Below, piece after piece: positions 180-28,078 of a DNA stretch of 31,952 nucleotides. The notes beneath the pieces are model-generated. The model worked only from the letters and a program-made list of their open reading frames with translations. It was not told where the DNA came from and searched no databases. The stretch spans positions 1-31,952 of the IMG/VR virus record IMGVR_UViG_3300020045_003285. One strand, given 5' to 3'. Within the stretch, counting starts at the first letter, position 1, and each line of letters opens with the position of its first letter. The position numbers and the translations under genes were made by a program. The DNA comes from a virus (Duplodnaviria > Caudoviricetes).

Positions 180-797
180 TTAAAATTGTTGATTATTTGT
201 TAAATATGCTACGTATTCATCACGTAGTTTTGTTGCTTCAATTATTCTTTTTTTAATTAATTCTATTCTACATTCATCACGTTCAACTATTATTTCGTGC
301 CACATTTCCTTACCTTTAAAAATAATATAATTAAAGAAGTGACAACGTTTTGAGTTAGTACATAACATTTGCATTTGCATTTGGTCGATGTAATCTTTAT
401 CAATAGCATCGTAACCTTTAGCAACCAATTTAAAAAACTTTGTTGAACGTGGACATTTTATTTCTAAAATAGCATCGTTACCTACTAATCCGTCAGGACT
501 TGCACCAGCACTATCTCCTAAAACAAAAAATGAAGTTTCTTGAACATCTAAAAAATCATATTCTTTTAATTCTTTAAATTTACGAAAAGCGATTGGTTCT
601 AATTCAGTGCCTCTACGCATATCAAAACTTTCAAAACTTTCATCTTCATCAACACCATAAACCAACTCGCAAGCTTTTTCAAATGCGTAATTTTCGCCAG
701 TTAAATTCAATCCTTTAACTCCTAAAAGTTCGCTAATACGTGAGGCTGTAAATCTTCCCTCACGTATTGCAAACCATTCTTTACTGCGCTGGTTCAT
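180..797 (-). CDS. YqaJ / lambda-exonuclease family recombination nuclease
   Basis: QRSKEWFAIREGRFTAS, MRRGTELEP, GASPDGLV, LEIKCP and YIDQMQMQM match the lambda Exo/YqaJ motifs. Confidence 0.93.
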   Translation of the reverse strand: MNQRSKEWFAIREGRFTASRISELLGVKGLNLTGENYAFEKACELVYGVDEDESFESFDMRRGTELEPIAFRKFKELKEYDFLDVQETSFFVLGDSAGASPDGLVGNDAILEIKCPRSTKFFKLVAKGYDAIDKDYIDQMQMQMLCTNSKRCHFFNYIIFKGKEMWHEIIVERDECRIELIKKRIIEATKLRDEYVAYLTNNQQF

Positions 798-1284
798 AAG
801 CTAAATATTTATTATAAACTTCGTCTGTTAAAGTGTATATTTTTTCTATTTGTTCACGAGTTACATTTGCTTTTTTTGCTTTTTCAAAATTAGCTTCTGT
901 AAATTCTAACTTTGATTTTTCTTGCAATCTTGGCTGAATAGGTCTTATTCTTACACCTTGCGTAGTAACTCCTTTCATTTGTACATTTTCGTCAACATAC
1001 AATTCAACTAATACATTTTTCCAATCTTGAACAAAAGAACTGCCAGTAAAAGTTTTAATTTGCTTTGAGTTTGTTGCGTTTAAAACCATTGGTTTAATTG
1101 GTTCTACAAAATAAGCTATATTTGCATCAATTTTTTTACCAGCAACTTTAGCTTGCTTTTCTTGTTTAACGTGCTTTATTGTAAAAATTAAAGGTTTACC
1201 TTGTTCAATAAAATCTTCTAAATCTGCACTACCTAAATGGTCTGATTTAAAAACGTTTCTGTAATGGTCTTTTTTTGTTTCCAT
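781..1284 (-). CDS. Conserved phage protein beside the exonuclease; possible ssDNA-binding/annealing partner
   Basis: 167 aa with KPMVLNATN...DW motifs; overlaps the exonuclease start. Function inferred from position only. Confidence 0.5.
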   Translation of the reverse strand: METKKDHYRNVFKSDHLGSADLEDFIEQGKPLIFTIKHVKQEKQAKVAGKKIDANIAYFVEPIKPMVLNATNSKQIKTFTGSSFVQDWKNVLVELYVDENVQMKGVTTQGVRIRPIQPRLQEKSKLEFTEANFEKAKKANVTREQIEKIYTLTDEVYNKYLAYEPAQ

Positions 1285-1307
1285 AAGTTTTATTTTTGTT
1301 TAAAGTT

Positions 1308-1398
1308 AAAGCCACCAAAAACAGACTAAGTAGTGAGGGTCTGCAATTGATGGCTCGGATGTTTTGTTATCGCTCACTACTTCGATATGGTAAAATTA
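1308..1398 (-). ncRNA. Structured 5' leader A (two hairpins with complementary loops)
   Basis: Hairpin 1 UAUCG-[AAGUAGUGAG]-CGAUA (1387-1368). Hairpin 2 AGCCAUCAA..CAGAC-[CCUCACUACUUA]-GUCUG..UUGGUGGCU-UU (1355-1308). Loops are 10-bp complementary; the G-U pair forms only on the minus strand. Confidence 0.6.
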
Positions 1399-1399
1399 G

Positions 1400-1660
1400 T
1401 TATAATTGTATTACTTCGTTTAGTTTATTTTCATAGTATTCTAAACTTAATTTCATACTACTTATTTTTTGACTAATTAAATATTTTAAATAATAAATAG
1501 CATCCTCTTTTGTTTCAAAACTTTTAGAGTATTTAGTATCTAACATTTCTCTATTTGTTTCAGAAGTCCAAAAATAAGTATCGGTTTTTCTAATATATTC
1601 AACTTCTATAATGCCACATTCCATATTCGTAGCAACTTGGTATATTTTTTTTGTTTCCAT
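1400..1660 (-). CDS. Hypothetical phage protein (86 aa)
   Basis: ORF track; has its own promoter and leader upstream. Confidence 0.7.
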   Translation of the reverse strand: METKKIYQVATNMECGIIEVEYIRKTDTYFWTSETNREMLDTKYSKSFETKEDAIYYLKYLISQKISSMKLSLEYYENKLNEVIQL

Positions 1661-1667
1661 AGTATAA

Positions 1668-1770
1668 AAATAAACCTCGAGTAAAAACTTAATCGGTCAG
1701 AATTAAGCATTAAACGAGGCGTTATTAATTTTTTCTAATACTCTGACCAGTATTTTGTTAAGCAAAGATA
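1668..1770 (-). ncRNA. Promoter TATCTTTG (1770-1763) plus structured 5' leader B
   Basis: Hairpin 1 AAUACU-[GGUCAG]-AGUAUU (1754-1737). Hairpin 2 GCCUCG..CUUAAU-[UCUGACCG]-AUUAAG..CGAGGU followed by a U-rich tract (1720-1666). Loops are complementary (GGUCAG/CUGACC). Confidence 0.6.
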
Positions 1771-1799
1771 ATTATAATTTAATTTAGAAACAAACTAAA

Positions 1800-2444
1800 T
1801 TAGAATAGCTTCTGTTGTGATACGTGGTTTTTTACTCTTTCAACTCCTTTTCTATAGTATTCCTCATCTAATTCTGCACCAACCAATTCAAATCCGTAAT
1901 CATGGCACGCAATTGCAATTGACATTGAGCCTAAATGAGTGTCGAGTATTTTGTCGTTTGGTTTTGCGTATTTGTCAAGTAACCATTTGTATAGTTTTTG
2001 TGGTTTTTGTGTTGGGTGTATTCGTTCTCTATTCACTTCTGTACTTCCTAAATGTTTTTTATATATCCTTAAAGTTCCAGTTTCAAAACTTGTCCATGCC
2101 ATTTCGCCATCAGCAAAGTGTGTTGTTCCGTTTACCTTGTCCCAAATTATCGGTGCAACACATTTGCCTAAATAATCTAAAAAGTAATTTCCACCCCACA
2201 CTATTTGATTTTTAGATACTCTTTTTAATTCGGCAAAGTAAATTTCATCAGGCATTTTATCCCACAATTTTCTTTTACTTCCTTCTTTCGCAGACTGCCT
2301 ATTTCTGTTATTTCCTTTGTCGTGCCATCCGTTTAGTCCATAAGGAGGATCAACAATTGCTAAATCGAAATAATTATCAGGATATTTCGCCATAAGTTCC
2401 ATATTATCGCAATTGTATAATTCTATTTTATCGGTTATTTTCAT
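1800..2444 (-). CDS. Orphan N6-adenine/N4-cytosine DNA methyltransferase (beta-class motif order)
   Basis: DLAIVDPPY (motif IV) near the N-terminus, HPTQKP, and ILDTHLGSMS (motif I) near the C-terminus; no cognate endonuclease adjacent. Confidence 0.92.
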   Translation of the reverse strand: MKITDKIELYNCDNMELMAKYPDNYFDLAIVDPPYGLNGWHDKGNNRNRQSAKEGSKRKLWDKMPDEIYFAELKRVSKNQIVWGGNYFLDYLGKCVAPIIWDKVNGTTHFADGEMAWTSFETGTLRIYKKHLGSTEVNRERIHPTQKPQKLYKWLLDKYAKPNDKILDTHLGSMSIAIACHDYGFELVGAELDEEYYRKGVERVKNHVSQQKLF

Positions 2445-2662
2445 AAGTTCATTTTACTTTGATAAATATTAAATTGTTCTTTTTGGAATATTACCATTTT
2501 ATTTTTAAATGGAATATCGTAGTTGATTTCGTTTTCCTCTGCTTCGGTTAAGTAACAATCTCCTTTATAGAAAAAAGGTATTATACTATGTTTTTTAATA
2601 CGCATTAGCAACGTTCTTGAAGCTATGCAGTACTTGTGACTTATATCGGTTATTGACATCAT
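2441..2662 (-). CDS. Small putative HTH DNA-binding protein
   Basis: N-terminal SITDISHKYCIASRTLLMRIKK resembles a MerR/excisionase-like HTH; coupled to the methyltransferase start. Confidence 0.45.
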   Translation of the reverse strand: MMSITDISHKYCIASRTLLMRIKKHSIIPFFYKGDCYLTEAEENEINYDIPFKNKMVIFQKEQFNIYQSKMNL

Positions 2663-2667
2663 AACCC

Positions 2668-2868
2668 TTAATTATTACTTACAACCTCACTAAATTTAAC
2701 CTCAATCCCTTTCGCTAACTCTAACGAGTGTTGTTCAAACTCTTCTTGCATTTTAGCTAAGAACTCTTTATGTTTTAAAAGTTCACGCTCTAAAGCCTCA
2801 ATTCTTAACGCTTGGAATTTTTCTAAATCCGTTTGAGGCGTTCTGTCTATTGTATATAATTCTGACAT
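2668..2868 (-). CDS. Hypothetical coiled-coil protein
   Basis: ORF track; FQALRIEALERELLKHKE heptads; tight packing. Confidence 0.65.
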   Translation of the reverse strand: MSELYTIDRTPQTDLEKFQALRIEALERELLKHKEFLAKMQEEFEQHSLELAKGIEVKFSEVVSNN

Positions 2869-2872
2869 AGTT

Positions 2873-3214
2873 TTAATTATTTTGTTCTAAATTAGATTTT
2901 CCTTGTAAATTAGTCCCAAACATTTTATTTGCAATGTCTACTTTATCTTGTGGAACACCTCTTAATTTGAGTTGTAAATTAGAAATTGTTAATTGCATTT
3001 CTCTTTCTCTTTTTATTGCATTATTAATTACCTCGTTTAATCCATTAATTCTAAACTCGGCGTGTTCATAATTTTGCCTTAATAGACTTATGCTTTTTAA
3101 TATAGTCCATTTATGAAAAAATATTGGTACTCTTTTGTAGTAAAACCAAAATACAATATGATTTAATTTTAATAATAATTTATTTAACATAATTTTTTGT
3201 TTACTTGTTTCCAT
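2873..3214 (-). CDS. Hypothetical protein
   Basis: ORF track; tight packing. Confidence 0.65.
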   Translation of the reverse strand: METSKQKIMLNKLLLKLNHIVFWFYYKRVPIFFHKWTILKSISLLRQNYEHAEFRINGLNEVINNAIKREREMQLTISNLQLKLRGVPQDKVDIANKMFGTNLQGKSNLEQNN

Positions 3215-3217
3215 TTC

Positions 3218-3694
3218 CTAAAATTTATAAGTTAATTTAATTCCCCCGTTAAATTGATACTCAGCATTTGCACCGCTAAACTCAAAATCTTCTCGCCAAT
3301 CGTAAGTAGCACGTAAACCGATATACACGTTATTAGTTATTTTTTTGTCAAATCCGCCCTCAAAACCGAATAACGGATATGTAGCGCCTCTGTGAATATA
3401 TCCTAAACGTATTCCGCTGTAAAACACCCAGTCTTGGTAATAGCCTTTATCTAATAAAATACCTAATCCTAAAGCCGTATCTACGTAATTAATCGATGGC
3501 AATATTTGAACGCTTGGTTTTATGTATAACCAATGTACTGAGTACTGAAATTCGAATGTAGCGTTTAAAGATTTTTCTTTGATACTTGAATTTGGTTCGA
3601 TTGTAACGGAAATTGTTGTGTATTCCGTATCTCCGAAATCTAATTGTTGCGCATTAACTTGTAATGCGAAAAGTAGTAATAATAGTTTTTTCAT
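3218..3694 (-). CDS. Putative outer-membrane beta-barrel protein
   Basis: Sec signal MKKLLLLLFALQVNA|Q, amphipathic strands (FYSGIRLGYI, VYIGLRATYD), C-terminal GGIKLTYKF beta-signal. Confidence 0.75.
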   Translation of the reverse strand: MKKLLLLLFALQVNAQQLDFGDTEYTTISVTIEPNSSIKEKSLNATFEFQYSVHWLYIKPSVQILPSINYVDTALGLGILLDKGYYQDWVFYSGIRLGYIHRGATYPLFGFEGGFDKKITNNVYIGLRATYDWREDFEFSGANAEYQFNGGIKLTYKF

Positions 3695-4119
3695 AGTCCA
3701 AATTTTTTAATTATGTTTTCGTTTACTTCGAGGTTGTGCGTAATAATATCCTCGATTGTCCATTTTGATTTTTTTAAAATTCTTAAATAAATACAAGAAT
3801 TAGGCAAGTCAACAAAATAAAAGTTTCCTTTATCTCTTATTTTACACCCTTTAAAAACAACTTTGTCTAATGCTGTTTCGTATTCTTGAATGTCACAAGA
3901 ATTGTCATCAAATGGATGCGTTAAAACAATCCACTTACCATCTTTTTCAATAGCTGGAACAAAATGCGATAGGTTTAAGGGTTGGGTTATGAAGTTTGTG
4001 TAGTTTTCAATATCTATTAATTTATTATAAGCATATTCTCTATAATCTAATTTATCTCTATATTTTGTATTTTCGATTATTTTCTTATTATACTCCGACA
4101 ATTTAGGTAATGTTTTCAT
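3691..4119 (-). CDS. Hypothetical phage protein
   Basis: ORF track; its stop overlaps the start of the next gene. Confidence 0.7.
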   Translation of the reverse strand: MKTLPKLSEYNKKIIENTKYRDKLDYREYAYNKLIDIENYTNFITQPLNLSHFVPAIEKDGKWIVLTHPFDDNSCDIQEYETALDKVVFKGCKIRDKGNFYFVDLPNSCIYLRILKKSKWTIEDIITHNLEVNENIIKKFGL

Positions 4120-4157
4120 AATATCTATTTTAAGTTAATTGTTTTGTTTGGTGGTGG

Positions 4158-4475
4158 TTAAAGTTGATTGTAAATTTCATTAGCTTTTTCTATTGCTTTT
4201 TCAACGGCTTCATTTCGGGTTTTATAATTATCTTCAAAACCACAAATTAAATATGTTTTAAATTCTCCAAAAGATTTGTCGTTATAATTTTTTATTTCAT
4301 TATAATACCCTTTAAATCCGTGTTGCGGTAATATTATAATTCCAACACTATCGAACCAATGAATTATTAATGCTAAATTTGCGTAATTCATACTTTCATC
4401 AGAAAAAATACCATTATCGTCATTTTCACACCATTTTAAAAAATCTTCTTTTGCTTTTCCGTTTAGTAATTCCAT
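4158..4475 (-). CDS. Hypothetical phage protein (paralog of the partial gene at the right edge)
   Basis: C-terminus KTRNEAVEKAIEKANEIYN. Confidence 0.75.
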   Translation of the reverse strand: MELLNGKAKEDFLKWCENDDNGIFSDESMNYANLALIIHWFDSVGIIILPQHGFKGYYNEIKNYNDKSFGEFKTYLICGFEDNYKTRNEAVEKAIEKANEIYNQL

Positions 4476-4481
4476 CCCTCT

Positions 4482-4652
4482 CTAATTTAAGTTTTCATTA
4501 TAAATTGGATTTTCCAATCTTATTTGTTCTTTATCTTGATTGAATTTATCAATTAAGTTTTGCGGAATCGGTTGGTCTAATCTTATTAAATCCATATAGA
4601 AATTATTCATTTTAATTTCTTGTTCCGTTTTTGGTACGATGGTGTTTTTCAT
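4482..4652 (-). CDS. Hypothetical protein, 56 aa (not in track)
   Basis: MKNTIVPKTEQEIKMNNFYMDLIRLDQPIPQNLIDKFNQDKEQIRLENPIYNENLN; ATGA overlap with the upstream gene. Confidence 0.6.
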   Translation of the reverse strand: MKNTIVPKTEQEIKMNNFYMDLIRLDQPIPQNLIDKFNQDKEQIRLENPIYNENLN

Positions 4653-4918
4653 GGTTCGTTACTTATTAGTATTGCACTTTTCAAATTGCTAATTCCATTT
4701 TCTGGATTTAAAAACATATTGTAATTAAAATAAACGTTGTTTTTAGTTTGTAAAATTATTTCGTTGGTACGTTCTTTATTTTCTACAATCTCATAACTTC
4801 CAAATCTTTTTTGTTTATTACCGAAATACATATCTCTTTTCCATTCTACAACGACTAAATCGCCCTTTTTTAAACTTTGAAAATCTTGTAATTTTGTTAA
4901 TGGTCTGCTACTTATCAT
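4649..4918 (-). CDS. Hypothetical protein
   Basis: ORF track; LKKGDLVVVEW suggests an SH3-like barrel start. Confidence 0.65.
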   Translation of the reverse strand: MISSRPLTKLQDFQSLKKGDLVVVEWKRDMYFGNKQKRFGSYEIVENKERTNEIILQTKNNVYFNYNMFLNPENGISNLKSAILISNEP

Positions 4919-4968
4919 AACCTTTTACTTTAAATTGTTTAACATTGTTTCGATTGTTTTGGCGCACT

Positions 4969-5112
4969 TTAAAGATTTTTAATGCGCTCGTTTATTTCTT
5001 GCTTTAGTACTTTTGCCATTCCTAAAGGAACTATTTTTCTAACGTGTAAAATTTCAGTTTCTACATTTGGAAACTTTGGTTTTGCTCCTGCGTTACGTTC
5101 GTTTTTTTTCAT
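4969..5112 (-). CDS. Small basic putative DNA-binding protein, copy 1 (47 aa, not in track)
   Basis: MKKNERNAGAKPKFPNVETEILHVRKIVPLGMAKVLKQEINERIKNL; first 14 aa identical to the protein at 7844-8035; ATGA-coupled. Confidence 0.7.
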   Translation of the reverse strand: MKKNERNAGAKPKFPNVETEILHVRKIVPLGMAKVLKQEINERIKNL

Positions 5113-5336
5113 AATTCAATTATATATTTTTTACCTTGTTTATGTACTATAAAATTAAAATCATAGTGTAGTTTCTCCATTAATCTAAAACAACTTTTAT
5201 TGTTTTGCAATAATATTAATATTTTGTTTTCTTTTTTAATAACCTCAACTTTTAAACCTAAATTTTCAATAATTAAAAACTCTATTTCATTTTTATTTAA
5301 TTCAAGTAAATTGATTGTTATTTTCTGGATTTTCAT
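5109..5336 (-). CDS. Hypothetical protein
   Basis: ORF track; coupled at both ends. Confidence 0.6.
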   Translation of the reverse strand: MKIQKITINLLELNKNEIEFLIIENLGLKVEVIKKENKILILLQNNKSCFRLMEKLHYDFNFIVHKQGKKYIIEL

Positions 5337-5416
5337 GGTTTAAATTTATAGCCTATTAAACACCCAATTAAAGCCCCTAGTAAACAAGCTAATAATGTTG
5401 ATTCATATATATTCAT
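5333..5416 (-). CDS. 27-aa single-pass membrane microprotein (not in track)
   Basis: MNIYESTLLACLLGALIGCLIGYKFKP; ATGA overlaps at both ends fill the gap exactly. Confidence 0.6.
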   Translation of the reverse strand: MNIYESTLLACLLGALIGCLIGYKFKP

Positions 5417-5601
5417 AATTTACCTTTTTTATATTTATCTACAAAATAATTAAAATCAATATCAAATTGAAAAAATATAAATGCAAATAATATGTAATTA
5501 GTTGATGAATAATCTGAATTTCTAAATTTCATTTGAAATGAAATAAATATACATTCAATAGGATTCCAAATATGAAAGTTAAATAGTTTTTGTTTTTCCA
5601 T
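5413..5601 (-). CDS. Hypothetical hydrophobic protein
   Basis: ORF track. Confidence 0.55.
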   Translation of the reverse strand: MEKQKLFNFHIWNPIECIFISFQMKFRNSDYSSTNYILFAFIFFQFDIDFNYFVDKYKKGKL

Positions 5602-5735
5602 TATTCTTTATTTAAAAATATTTCTATTTGTTCTGCTAAATCGTAATCTTCATTTAATAACGCTTCATTTTGTATTTTTATTAAAGAGTTAAACTGCTCT
5701 TTACTGTCTGTTTTTGTTTCTAACCAATTATCCAT
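5601..5735 (-). CDS. 44-aa protein with a UVR-like motif (not in track)
   Basis: MDNWLETKTDSKEQFNSLIKIQNEALLNEDYDLAEQIEIFLNKE; TAATG coupling to the next gene. Confidence 0.55.
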   Translation of the reverse strand: MDNWLETKTDSKEQFNSLIKIQNEALLNEDYDLAEQIEIFLNKE

Positions 5736-5866
5736 AACTTCTATTTTTTATCCATAAATTAATATTAAACTCAGTAAAAACGTGTATACAATTATCCATA
5801 AATCTATACACATTCTCCATAAATATATAGAAAACCTTAGTTCTCTATACATATTTCTACATAAAC
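5728..5866. repeat. Cluster of imperfect direct repeats TT(A/C)T(C/A)CATAA
   Basis: TTATCCATAA at 5728, 5748 and 5792; TTCTCCATAA at 5813; TTCTACATAA at 5855; three of these are preceded by TATACA. Confidence 0.6.
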
Positions 5867-6019
5867 TCTATGATTTGATAAAGTTGTTATTAAAGCATAA
5901 TTTTCAACTCCCCATTTACCATTGTATTTTTCAAAAGTTTCTAAAGATTGAACTGCTATTAATTCTCCTTTTGATAATGCACCTTGTTGTTTTGCTGAGT
6001 AAATTTTAAATGTTTTCAT
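5837..6019 (-). CDS. Hypothetical protein (first gene after the duplicated leader)
   Basis: ORF track; ATG directly follows the conserved leader. Confidence 0.7.
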   Translation of the reverse strand: MKTFKIYSAKQQGALSKGELIAVQSLETFEKYNGKWGVENYALITTLSNHRVYVEICIEN

Positions 6020-6128
6020 AATATTTTGTTTTAGTGTTTCGCTTTATTGCTGAGTACAAATATACAACCATATTTCTAATAAACAAACATTTTATTAATT
6101 ATTTGTATTATTTAAAATAATTCCAAAT
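6017..6128 (-). promoter_or_regulatory. Duplicated promoter/leader cassette, copy 1
   Basis: TATATTTG at 6064-6057; 35 bp identical to 8347-8381; palindrome ATTTAAAATAATTCCAAAT at 6110-6128. Confidence 0.75.
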
Positions 6129-6152
6129 AAAAAACCGTAATTAAACGGCTTT
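6129..6152 (-). terminator. Intrinsic terminator
   Basis: Minus strand AAAGCCGT-TTAATT-ACGGTTTTTT at the end of the 252-aa gene. Confidence 0.6.
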
Positions 6153-6899
6153 GATTTTAATGTTAAACTTAGATTCTGCTTCGGGGATTGTGTAGGTGGG
6201 TATCGTTTCAGCCCATTGACCATTATGAAATATTACATCACCATTAAAATATAATGTGTTTTTAATAAAAACATATTCTTTATTTGTCTCGATTCCGTAG
6301 CAACCACTTATTAACTTATAATTACCGACTTCGTACCCTCTCTTAATCGCCTCTTTTACCAAAGCTTCTTCTACTTCTTTTTCGGTGGATGGTATAAAAT
6401 AATTACTAAGAACTCGACTGCTTCTTAAACAAGATTCAGACCAATTGCCACTCATTCCAAAACCATAAGATTTTATTCCGTTTTCTCTATTTAAAATATC
6501 CTCAATATAAAGAAATGATTTGCTATTAAACCTTGAATCTTTATACCAACCCCCCACTTCCAACTCCGTTTCAAAACACTCTTTAAAAGTATCTTTCCAG
6601 TATTGAGGTTTATCGTGTCCATAAACAATCTCTTTTGCTGTGAGTTGGTAAAGTGGTTCTTTGTAAGATATGATTTCAGCGTACGTATTTGTTTGCTCAT
6701 CATAAAGAATAAAATCTCCATTATCGCAATCTATATAATAACCATTAGCATCAGAATCACTATCTGAATAGTAATAAATTAATTTGTCATCAATAGACTC
6801 AATATTTCCATTATAAATTCCTATATTTCCTTTTACCTCTTTAGCATTTTTAAAATACTCTTTTACATCTTGTAATGTTGGCTTATCCATAATATTCAT
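6141..6899 (-). CDS. Hypothetical phage protein (252 aa)
   Basis: ORF track; a weak internal repeat (TNTYAEIISY / NGQWAETIPTY) suggests a modular build. Confidence 0.75.
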   Translation of the reverse strand: MNIMDKPTLQDVKEYFKNAKEVKGNIGIYNGNIESIDDKLIYYYSDSDSDANGYYIDCDNGDFILYDEQTNTYAEIISYKEPLYQLTAKEIVYGHDKPQYWKDTFKECFETELEVGGWYKDSRFNSKSFLYIEDILNRENGIKSYGFGMSGNWSESCLRSSRVLSNYFIPSTEKEVEEALVKEAIKRGYEVGNYKLISGCYGIETNKEYVFIKNTLYFNGDVIFHNGQWAETIPTYTIPEAESKFNIKIKAV

Positions 6900-7134
6900 T
6901 TTTAAATTTGTTTAATAATTCTTTTGTTGTTAGTTCGGTTTCGTTTTTAACTACTTGGTTAAAATAATATTCCGCAAATTTGCACGTAAATTTATCAGAG
7001 TTTGTGTTACCAAATATTACTATCATAAATAACCCAATAAATAATAAAGTAAACCATTCCGAGCCGTAAGCAATTCCGAGTAATATCCCTAAAGCGGATA
7101 AAATCATTCCGATTAAAAATAGTGTTGGTTTCAT
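6883..7134 (-). CDS. Two-TM membrane protein (probable start MKPTLF)
   Basis: Two hydrophobic segments LFLIGMILSALGILLGIAY and WFTLLFIGLFMIVIFG; the start at 7134 avoids overlap with the upstream gene. Confidence 0.65.
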   Translation of the reverse strand: MKPTLFLIGMILSALGILLGIAYGSEWFTLLFIGLFMIVIFGNTNSDKFTCKFAEYYFNQVVKNETELTTKELLNKFKNEYYG

Positions 7135-7138
7135 ATGT

Positions 7139-7588
7139 TTAATTTTTTTCATGTATATTACCAATAACTTCAACCCATTCTAAAAAAGTTTCAGCAGATG
7201 AAATACTCCAAATTTTCCAAGAATCTTCTTGTTCATTATATTGATAAGCAAAAGCGCTCTTATAAAAAATTACTTTTGATTTAATAATAAAATCAATATC
7301 CTCAGGTTTTTTACCACATTTACTACAAAAATCATCTAAAGCAGATATTTCATTTTCACATCCACTAGATTTGCACCAAGACTTTTTTTCGCAAAAATTA
7401 ACAATATCATTTTCGTAAATTTCTTTTTTATTTTTATCTATAGAGCCAGTAAATTGACATCTTGTAAATGGATTTATTTCTACAACTTCTATTGCTGTTT
7501 GAATAAAATGTTTATCCCCAATGTTGTAGTAATTTCCAAAATACCATTTATTATCATATCCTAATCCTTTAAATTTTATTTCTCTCAT
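7139..7588 (-). CDS. YopX-family protein with an inserted Cys4 motif
   Basis: MREIKFKG...CQFTGSIDKNKKEIYENDIV...EVIGNIHE is the YopX signature. Confidence 0.88.
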   Translation of the reverse strand: MREIKFKGLGYDNKWYFGNYYNIGDKHFIQTAIEVVEINPFTRCQFTGSIDKNKKEIYENDIVNFCEKKSWCKSSGCENEISALDDFCSKCGKKPEDIDFIIKSKVIFYKSAFAYQYNEQEDSWKIWSISSAETFLEWVEVIGNIHEKN

Positions 7589-7637
7589 CTTAACACATTT
7601 AAAATTTTTGTAAATCTACTTTTCACAATTCCGTTTG

Positions 7638-7841
7638 TTATAATTTCTCGCTTATTAAATTGGTTAGTGTTTCAATAACCCATTCTTGCAAATGGTTTAA
7701 TATCGTATGTCCGTTAATTGATACGTTTAAGATTGTAACCGTACCTTTATAACCAGTGCTTTCATCGGCTTCGGTTATTTCGCAATAACATTCGTATCTA
7801 ATGCCCTCGTAATTGATTTCGTAAGTTTCGTTTTTAAACAT
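7638..7841 (-). CDS. Hypothetical protein
   Basis: ORF track. Confidence 0.65.
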   Translation of the reverse strand: MFKNETYEINYEGIRYECYCEITEADESTGYKGTVTILNVSINGHTILNHLQEWVIETLTNLISEKL

Positions 7842-7843
7842 CT

Positions 7844-8035
7844 TTATTTATTTTTTAGATTTTCCGCTACACATTTGTCGAGTGCTTGTGTTTGCAATTG
7901 GTTGATAAATTCGTTTACTTGTTCTTTTGTAAGTTCATAGTCTTTTAAAGGAACTACTCTTTCAATTCTGAGTTTTTTAGTAGGTAGCGTTCCAAATTTT
8001 GGTTTTGCTCCAGCGTTACGTTCGTTTTTTTTCAT
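7844..8035 (-). CDS. Small basic putative DNA-binding protein, copy 2
   Basis: Probable start MKKNERNAGAKPKF at 8035, by analogy with the paralog at 4969-5112. Confidence 0.7.
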   Translation of the reverse strand: MKKNERNAGAKPKFGTLPTKKLRIERVVPLKDYELTKEQVNEFINQLQTQALDKCVAENLKNK

Positions 8036-8052
8036 TTCATTAATTTTGTAAA

Positions 8053-8349
8053 TTACCAACTTACTTCAATTAAATATTCTCCCTCTTCAATAAAACCATC
8101 TTCAAAAAGTACTTGAAAGATTTGATGAACAGAATGATTATTATAATCTCCGTTTCTTATTTCTTCTGCTTCATTACTGAAAAACATTGCTTTATTTGGT
8201 ACCTCAAAATCATAATTTGAATAATTATTAGCTTCATGTTGTGCTACAAATTCTAAATTACCTTCATATTTTGATTCAACAAATCTATCAAAATCATTAC
8301 AATCAATAGTGAATATTGTTTTACTTTTAAATGCTTTTTTAAATTCCAT
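8053..8349 (-). CDS. Acidic hypothetical protein (first gene after the duplicated leader)
   Basis: ORF track; D/E-rich. Confidence 0.75.
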   Translation of the reverse strand: MEFKKAFKSKTIFTIDCNDFDRFVESKYEGNLEFVAQHEANNYSNYDFEVPNKAMFFSNEAEEIRNGDYNNHSVHQIFQVLFEDGFIEEGEYLIEVSW

Positions 8350-8467
8350 AATATTTTGTTTTAGTGTTTCGCTTTATTGCTTATACAAATATACAACCCT
8401 TTTTTAATTACACAACGTTTTAATTAATTATTTTGCGTTTTAATTGTTATTTATATTAATTCTAAAT
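8347..8467 (-). promoter_or_regulatory. Duplicated promoter/leader cassette, copy 2
   Basis: TATATTTG at 8393-8386; palindrome ATTTATATTAATTCTAAAT at 8449-8467. Confidence 0.75.
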
Positions 8468-8476
8468 AACGAGCAT

Positions 8477-8507
8477 AAAAAAAGCGATACATTTCTGCAC
8501 CGCTTTT
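8477..8507 (-). terminator. Intrinsic terminator ending the late/lysis operon
   Basis: Minus strand AAAAGCGGTGC-AGAAAT-GTATCGCTTTTTTT, with G-U pairs. Confidence 0.75.
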
Positions 8508-8530
8508 CTCCTATCAACCAAACCAATAAA

Positions 8531-9034
8531 TTATGAAAGTGTAAATCTATGAAAATATTTACGATAAATAAAATAAATAGGTATAATTAATAAAAACCAA
8601 AGTAGCCACCAATACGAACTTTTACGCTCTGTTTGTTTTATCTTATTATCAATCTTTGTTTCTGCCTTTGTATTAGCTTTTTTAACTACGTTGTTTTGAA
8701 TAACTTCTTTTTTCTCTATAACTATATTATTTTTCTTTTTTAACGTCTTAAATCGAACATTTTTATAAACTTTTCCATCTATAACAATTTCTTTTGTGTT
8801 GTCGATTGGTTCTATTATTTGCTCTGATGTATCGGTGTAATCAATTACTTTTACATTTGTTTCAATTGTTTCCTTTTCAGTAATAGTTTCCGATGTTTCA
8901 ATTTTCTGAACTTCTTTTACTTTTTCAGTATTAGTTTTCCTTGTTCCGCAACTACAAGTAAATGCAAGTATCAGAATTAAAATAACGGCATACCATCCTA
9001 TTCTTATGTATTGGTTAATTTGGTGTAACTGCAT
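8531..9034 (-). CDS. Putative unimolecular spanin (lipoprotein with a C-terminal TM)
   Basis: Hydrophobic signal ending LAFTC27SC29G, T/K/E/V-rich body, C-terminal WWLLWFLLIIPIYFIY-RKYFHR; last gene of the lysis region. Confidence 0.65.
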   Translation of the reverse strand: MQLHQINQYIRIGWYAVILILILAFTCSCGTRKTNTEKVKEVQKIETSETITEKETIETNVKVIDYTDTSEQIIEPIDNTKEIVIDGKVYKNVRFKTLKKKNNIVIEKKEVIQNNVVKKANTKAETKIDNKIKQTERKSSYWWLLWFLLIIPIYFIYRKYFHRFTLS

Positions 9035-9239
9035 CTGAATAGTTTTTAACTGATTGGTCTGTTAAAACATTATCTCTACTTGATAATTGAATTGCTCTTA
9101 AATTTAAAGGAACTCTTTTGCAAAAATAACCATTGTTTAAATTATCTGTATTGTTTAAATCTCTATAAGATATCCAAGCAAAACTACCCTCATTTGTTGT
9201 TTGAATATTAAATACCTCAATGTTTTCTAAATTTTCCAT
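9015..9239 (-). CDS. Hypothetical protein inserted in the lysis cassette (moron-like)
   Basis: ORF track; has its own promoter (TACTTTTG 9322-9315) and structured leader. Confidence 0.65.
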   Translation of the reverse strand: MENLENIEVFNIQTTNEGSFAWISYRDLNNTDNLNNGYFCKRVPLNLRAIQLSSRDNVLTDQSVKNYSDAVTPN

Positions 9240-9256
9240 AATATATTGTTTTAAAA

Positions 9257-9322
9257 ATTAAAGCCAACCCTCGCTACAAAGATTGACTTTTAATATTGTT
9301 AGTGTAGCGAAATACAAAAGTA
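9257..9322 (-). ncRNA. Promoter plus structured 5' leader C
   Basis: 5' segment UCGCUACA (9310-9303) is complementary to loop UGUAGCGA (9278-9271) of hairpin AAAGUCAAUC/GGUUGGCUUU, whose two G-U pairs form on the minus strand. Confidence 0.55.
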
Positions 9323-9339
9323 GTGAATTTATTTTAAAT

Positions 9340-9366
9340 AAAAAAACCACCTCGTTAGAAGTGGTT
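9340..9366 (-). terminator. Intrinsic terminator downstream of the lysozyme
   Basis: Minus strand AACCACTTC-TAAC-GAGGTGGTT-TTTTT. Confidence 0.75.
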
Positions 9367-27937: not shown

Positions 27938-27943
27938 ATAAAC

Positions 27944-28078
27944 GTAAAAAAGTCCTACCTAAAATTAATTAAGTAAGACTTTCGTATTAAATTAGTGTTG
28001 TCGTTCATCCTAAAAAGAACTATGCATCTTCACATAGTTAGGCAAATATATAAAATATTATTTATAATTAGTATAAAT
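27944..28078 (-). promoter_or_regulatory. Portal leader: palindrome, promoter, hairpin, terminator-like hairpin
   Basis: Palindrome 28060-28078; TATATTTG 28050-28043; AACTATG-TGAAGATG-CATAGTT 28039-28018; AAAGTCTTAC-loop-GTAGGACTTT-TTT 27982-27946. Confidence 0.55.

Follow-up and report, generated by a model that had tools for sequence, protein, structure and literature searches.

In the guanidine-IV riboswitch (mepA motif), the loop of a 5′ hairpin (P1) pairs with the loop of the terminator and precludes the full terminator, according to published accounts, which ascribe the incompatibility to a linker that shortens as the terminator stem closes (10.1101/2020.10.21.349134; PMC11611296; PMC10907184; PMC9788692). 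Here we describe leaders of similar layout in IMGVR_UViG_3300020045_003285, a 31,952-nt virus record analysed in its entirety (the window) whose genes lie on the minus strand. Three leaders in the window (A, B and C) carry a short 5′ word, X, whose exact complement occupies the tip of a downstream terminator-like hairpin. Judged by its sequence, this kissing-loop leader is a real RNA design, because in related phages the pairing is conserved while the word itself takes dozens of forms, and it likely sets how far transcription passes into DNA replication, recombination and nuclease genes. As far as we have searched it is apparently uncatalogued: neither the window, nor two stretches of it, nor 18 related loci gave a match near the gathering score in Rfam 15 (where the presence of a guanidine-IV model was unchecked), in agreement with the earlier note on this DNA, which recognized no named family; no description was found in the literature searched, and subscription papers and large motif-survey supplements may hold one.

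The phage leaders share with guanidine-IV and Gd4v a 5′ hairpin, a variable linker and an intrinsic terminator, with pairing between the loops of the two hairpins, and the whole is placed directly before a gene. In contrast to these riboswitches, they have no conserved nucleotides and no fixed loop code (the letters of X), and some members are without P1; they are found in Flavobacterium-type and Cellulophaga phages ahead of DNA-metabolism genes, whereas guanidine-IV precedes guanidine exporters or transaminases. A Pfam check of 40 proteins (38 encoded by a gene that immediately follows an element) returned replication, recombination, nuclease, methylase or unknown functions, and no MATE/SugE exporters, GNAT proteins or transaminases. 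Because no nucleotide is invariant and the genes differ, the phage leaders are, by these marks, not members of guanidine-IV.

The earlier note had taken HK022 put, P1 C4 and P4 CI RNAs as its models; none of them is the closest relative in design, as guanidine-IV has the same topology, and the third pairing site, counter-promoter excess and tyrosine integrase sought with P1 C4 and P4 CI in mind were not found. HK022 put RNA is promoter-proximal, consists of two adjacent stems that are not known to kiss and acts on polymerase at distant terminators; the leaders resemble it as promoter-proximal phage RNAs with two hairpins, and differ in that the second hairpin is U-tailed and the linker measures 9-34 nt. 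In pT181-type attenuators, a convergent promoter gives an antisense RNA over the leader. Neither of two antisense models gains support: for the pT181-type counter-transcript, opposite-strand -7 boxes are not in excess, and for P4 CI / P1 C4 antisense immunity, a downstream complementary target within 500 nt occurs at chance level (counts are given below). P4 CI and Gifsy-1 IsrK are similar in being phage leaders that terminate prematurely ahead of replication-type genes and contain words complementary to one another (PMC4825925), and differ in that the present elements, all shorter than 100 nt, have no third site, no processed antisense unit that we could find and no tyrosine integrase in the records searched. 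A looser analogue than guanidine-IV is the zipper-type attenuator of pLS20, a mobile-element leader in which an upstream sequence pairs with both stem and loop of the terminator, and in which the antiterminator forms by default and the input is unknown (PMC13401043); it has a 456-nt leader and a long zipper helix, in contrast to the 6-10-bp loop contact of the phage leaders.

Leaders A, B and C all lie on the minus strand and follow one order: a -7 box, X, an A-rich linker, a U-tailed hairpin with the X complement in its loop, and the ATG, with X comprising 6-10 letters near the predicted transcript start. The positions and loop complementarity originally reported for them were confirmed. The -7 box spans positions -12 to -5 relative to the transcription start (PMC9723704), and the predicted +1 positions were set accordingly. 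In A, the box (TAATTTTA, 1391..1398) is degenerate, having one mismatch to TAnnTTTG and no -33 TTG, and predicts a +1 at 1386, the foot of hairpin P1 (1368..1387; 5 bp), whose 10-nt loop is X (1373-1382); the terminator-like hairpin P2 (1309..1356; 16 bp) holds the 10-nt X complement in its loop at 1328-1337 and is followed by a U-rich tail (1302..1308). The promoter of B (1763..1794) comprises a -33 TTTG (1791-1794), a 20-nt spacer and a -7 box (1763-1770), with a predicted +1 at 1758, four bases 5′ of P1 (1737..1754; 6 bp; loop X at 1743-1748); its P2 (1674..1721) carries the X complement at 1695-1700 and a U-rich tail at 1666-1673, and the loop-loop contact extends to 7 bp with one flanking pair. 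In C, the -7 box (9315..9322) places the predicted +1 at 9310, the first base of an 8-nt X (9303..9310) that is single-stranded and without P1, ahead of a P2 of 11 bp (9260..9290) with the X complement at 9271-9278 and a U-rich tail at about 9250-9259. A promoter and a 5′ hairpin or segment had been proposed for all three: the boxes of B and C and the hairpins of A and B bear this out; A's box is degenerate, and C has no 5′ hairpin.

At another locus, L492, A's leader recurs letter for letter, with a perfect box in the same register and a different downstream gene; leader A thus travels as a cassette. Because A's own box is mismatched and without a -33 element while the L492 copy has a perfect box, A in the window may depend on read-through from B's promoter. 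A stretch in the promoter region of C (9318-9327, minus strand) matches A's terminator-loop word at 9 of 10 letters, a coincidence at chance level for a window of this size.

The strongest evidence for pairing comes from a code-blind search, in which only promoter and stem letters were fixed and both 8-nt loops were left unspecified. Among its 35 matches, 33 have seven of seven Watson-Crick loop pairs, with 7 codes, and near-identical scaffolds bear different codes; the remaining 2 have no terminator by inspection. This is the loop-loop covariation that the earlier note had wished to see in relatives. In an alignment (A3) of 23 rows chosen from found elements, and thus pre-selected for pairing, both sides change at 5 of 7 kiss pairs, a level reached in 0 of 500 shuffles. 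B's own scaffold shows a two-pair compensatory code change. For C, three relatives are known, in which the stems covary and the code changes once.

A pattern with B's code fixed matched 118 stretches, yielding 81 distinct promoter-linked elements, and the collection as a whole amounts to 197 elements in 149 contig groups with 70 distinct X strings, some of them extensions of one core. The element invariably stands 6-31 nt 5′ of an ATG, and P1 or X begins at about +1; a -33 TTG at a spacer of 18-20 accompanies 47 of 163 promoters, and P1 is missing in 10 of 56 representatives, C among them. The loop helices are perfectly Watson-Crick, and no invariant base was found in or beside them across 36 codes. 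Kiss energy (that of the X:loop pairing) does not follow terminator energy (rho -0.11). Such dozens of natural codes could serve as a parts list for tunable or orthogonal attenuators in Bacteroidota. Some codes are found in both orientations: the word that A bears in its 5′ loop sits in the terminator loop of G001:C1 7625 (plus strand), where 14 nt of context are shared, and flipped counterparts exist for several other codes. An extra A/U-rich hairpin lies within the linker of some elements (G002, G004, G008, L170, L211, L216), where the single-stranded length stays at 12-18 nt.

Shuffling and strand comparisons concur. A descriptor consisting of X and its complement in the loop of a U-tailed hairpin finds five matches in the window, namely A, B and C and two promoter-less 6-bp matches on the plus strand. 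When the minus strand was block-shuffled 12 times, 7 matches arose in total, none with a promoter box and none with at least 8 pairs. (An initial pattern scan without the full promoter box was rejected, its matches being mostly due to chance.) At 41 loci reached through the two proteins behind A (425 kb), there are 15 promoter-linked matches versus 0 in each of 3 shuffles, and 54 of 82 promoter-terminator-ORF leaders (from 45 records, mostly picked for carrying the element) pair, versus a mean of 3.3 and a maximum of 8 when the 5′ segments are shuffled. Sampling 240 loci anchored on genes recovered 69 distinct elements, of which 68 lie on the coding strand, and the terminator hairpin is more stable on the sense strand in 49 of 56 representatives. 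Folding z-scores on the minus strand are -3.8 (A), -3.0 (B) and -3.5 (C), against -1.0, -0.9 and -3.3 on the plus strand; the strand argument of the earlier note thus holds firmly for A and B but carries little weight for C by itself, which folds nearly as well on the plus strand. Its two broader claims, selection at the RNA level and a cis-acting attenuator, are backed by the code-blind covariation, the pair counts and the sense-strand stability.

We favour, with a probability of roughly 0.55, a ligand-free co-transcriptional attenuator in which the kiss (the pairing of X with the terminator loop) races terminator closure and doses read-through into the downstream gene. Its starting point, a -7 box, X at or near +1, a linker, a U-tailed hairpin with the X complement and an ATG, can be read directly from the letters, and covariation shows that the X:loop pairing is kept while its letters change. 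The pairing is predicted to form once the loop exits polymerase, 10-20 nt before the 3′ arm of the terminator is free, and the tether between the loops would, by analogy with guanidine-IV, set the kiss against a fully closed terminator. Because there is no conserved pocket, folding kinetics and elongation rate would decide the outcome, so that a strong host-type promoter would deliver replication, recombination and nuclease genes at a dose that is fixed or tuned slowly, with the terminated 60-95-nt RNA as a by-product. Nested equilibrium folding of growing transcripts is consistent with such a race: the X:loop helix dominates at about 60-76 nt in A, 68-86 in B and 42-52 in C, counted from the box end, and yields to the terminator at full length in all three, a transient window being present in 50 of 56 representatives and the helix being lost at full length in 54 of 56. 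These windows fit a race, short of proof. If the attenuator reading is correct, a loop-kisses-terminator mechanism so far tied to a metabolite riboswitch would be widespread, without a conserved pocket, in phages of the Bacteroidota, a phylum with poorly mapped transcription control, and might explain by what means small single-polarity phages, and the selfish nucleases they carry, keep the output of strong host-type promoters in check.

Several points weigh against this attenuator. The transcript folding ignores pseudoknots and kinetics, has no control and partly follows from the geometry that was searched for. In a crude rod model, the linker of 37 of 46 representatives has a contour longer than a straight rod of P1, kiss and P2, and in 9 of 46 it is too short, so that kiss and closed terminator are not plainly exclusive; nor does linker length increase with P2 length (rho -0.33). 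A weak promoter is a simpler route to a fixed dose, which speaks for an overlooked input. Finally, the code GGUCAG is kept across scaffolds less than 75% identical (the sampling favoured this code), a persistence that exceeds the need of a purely cis helix.

In a rival reading, the same cis antiterminator is gated by the terminated leader RNA itself, acting in trans: its free terminator loop would capture X on new transcripts, block the cis kiss and enforce termination, so that each code would serve as a feedback or timing circuit of its own, or would signal exclusion among co-infecting phages. Precedents for a terminated leader acting in trans on its own locus are IsrK and, as described in the same account, P4 CI (PMC4825925). 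Under such capture, one would expect the codes of a genome to avoid one another and to diversify rapidly. After merging elements before similar genes within a contig group, and excluding one false contig merge, cross-pairing over 6 nt is possible in none of the 54 pairs of elements that share a contig, where free permutation predicts 5.5 (P 0.002); with the recombination-locus code set apart, however, only 1.1 cross-pairs are expected (P 0.31). No code repeats within a contig, but once locus is allowed for this is not significant, and the orthogonality postulated earlier stays conjectural. In G025, the same scaffold occurs twice with codes one compensatory pair apart, which, like the different codes on near-identical scaffolds, would suit diversification, but kiss pairs change faster than stems only at scaffold identities of at least 90% (12/322 vs 11/989, P 0.005, over non-independent edges), the difference is gone at 80% or 70%, and diversifying selection on the codes is not robust. 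Further points against action in trans are that third complementary sites within 500 nt downstream occur no more often than by chance (1 and 1 of 120, where 1.1 and 0.8 are expected), the near-equal frequency of opposite-strand -7 boxes near and far (10 and 11, of 149), and the lack of any tyrosine integrase (PF00589) in 29 carrier records, a search whose scope did not extend to serine integrases and plasmid prophages. We therefore regard as unlikely both capture in trans and the protein-free, barcode-addressed feedback that would follow from it, in which each terminated RNA represses only transcripts with its own 6-10-nt code. Were it true, lytic Bacteroidota phages would hold several independent RNA timers built from one minimal fold, possibly with exclusion between co-infecting phages.

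Alternatively, a protein or small ligand, of phage or host origin, might stabilize or break the kiss, making a true ON/OFF switch like guanidine-IV or Gd4v. The topology is identical to that of guanidine-IV, and the helix ends are biased: GU at the start or AC at the end, in either orientation, marks 42 of 70 codes, against 9.4 (maximum 19) when the letters are shuffled. This bias is, however, explicable by descent or kissing geometry; no position approaches the over-97% conservation of guanidine-IV, the helices are perfectly Watson-Crick and the downstream genes share no link to any single metabolite, which makes such a switch rather doubtful. It is distinctly unlikely, too, that the short RNA is itself the product, with the kiss compacting or protecting the released transcript or letting copies associate, and with downstream genes expressed by terminator leak. 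Loop sizes do suit closed-stem kissing (6-7 bp with 0-2 unpaired 5′ bases), and linker length permits a full intramolecular kiss in most representatives, but a shared sequence able to address a target is absent, the element keeps its constant position 5′ of an ATG, and, to go by helix geometry, forms without P1 and those with 8-10 bp in an 8-12-nt loop would be hard to close. That the leaders arise by chance, or are inverted repeats of the DNA without a function as RNA, is a reading for which C's plus-strand fold might speak; it is very improbable in view of the shuffles, the paired leaders and the coding-strand bias, and is already refuted by the code-blind covariation unless that search was biased.

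Genes behind the elements encode DUF6291 initiator-like proteins, helicases, primase-polymerases, Erf, NUMOD4-HNH and GIY-YIG nucleases, methylases and many unknowns. Four of eight cultured phage records scanned carry the element: in the Flavobacterium phages snork6-1 and tooticki6-1 it precedes a NUMOD4 endonuclease (L672 12880-13458), and in the Cellulophaga phages phi19:1 and phi10:1 (first 50 kb scanned) a primase/helicase block. These cultured carriers make the kissing-loop leader testable, and two carriers are described as virulent isolates (PMC7077304). No convincing element was found in lillamy9-1, HNL05, BV57P3 or RAP44, where one weak match was rejected. At the NUMOD4 site, lillamy9-1 (L674) has a different gene and no element, from which it would appear that leader and endonuclease travel together. 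A blastn search with a B-type leader against cultured phages gave no useful match. Bacterial chromosomes almost never match the one code tested: bacterial genomes gave 31 pattern matches, 2 of which passed the descriptor, and in the genus of the seed 2 of 401 genomes match, one being the seed and the other known from the matched string alone.

The window itself has PHROG matches to terminase, portal, major head, tape measure, endolysin, DNA methylase and a YqaJ-type exonuclease, and no tRNA was found in it. A search for expression of the leaders returned at least 20 runs, each with a small share; contigs from 4 of them, over a stretch that did not include C, left A and B uncovered. The large terminase of the window shares 67% identity with its counterparts in cultured Flavobacterium phages, among them snork6-1 and tooticki6-1, and we therefore infer a Flavobacterium-like host. 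Behind A lies a gene for a 167-aa protein (781..1284, minus strand; PHROG 21613, function unknown), coupled to the YqaJ-type recombination exonuclease gene (180..797, minus strand; PF09588, E 3.5e-21); since this is the usual place of Erf/RecT-type annealing genes, it would encode an annealing protein. The genes behind B (1400..1660, minus strand; 86 aa) and C (9015..9239, minus strand; 74 aa) have no family match. The genes behind A and B (starts 1284 and 1660) share the N-terminus METKK, and B's closest relative (L653) directly precedes a homologue of A's gene, which together suggest that recombination at this common start brought in the 86-aa gene along with leader A.

An ordinary terminator hairpin (9345..9366, minus strand) 3′ of the endolysin gene would insulate C's promoter from late transcription. 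Two near-identical promoter and short-leader cassettes at 8350-8400 and 6020-6070 (minus strand), in which TTG abuts the -7 box and some 45 nt are held in common down to the ATG, are probably early promoters. At 27938-28050 (minus strand), 5′ of the portal gene, a promoter is followed by two hairpins joined by a conserved linker, the first with a conserved loop (UGAAGAUG-like) and the second U-tailed; loop-loop complementarity is absent, and the same leader precedes a gene of about 400 aa in G001, G004, G019 and G034. The leader bears a likeness to lambda boxB and is possibly a protein-bound late antitermination site.

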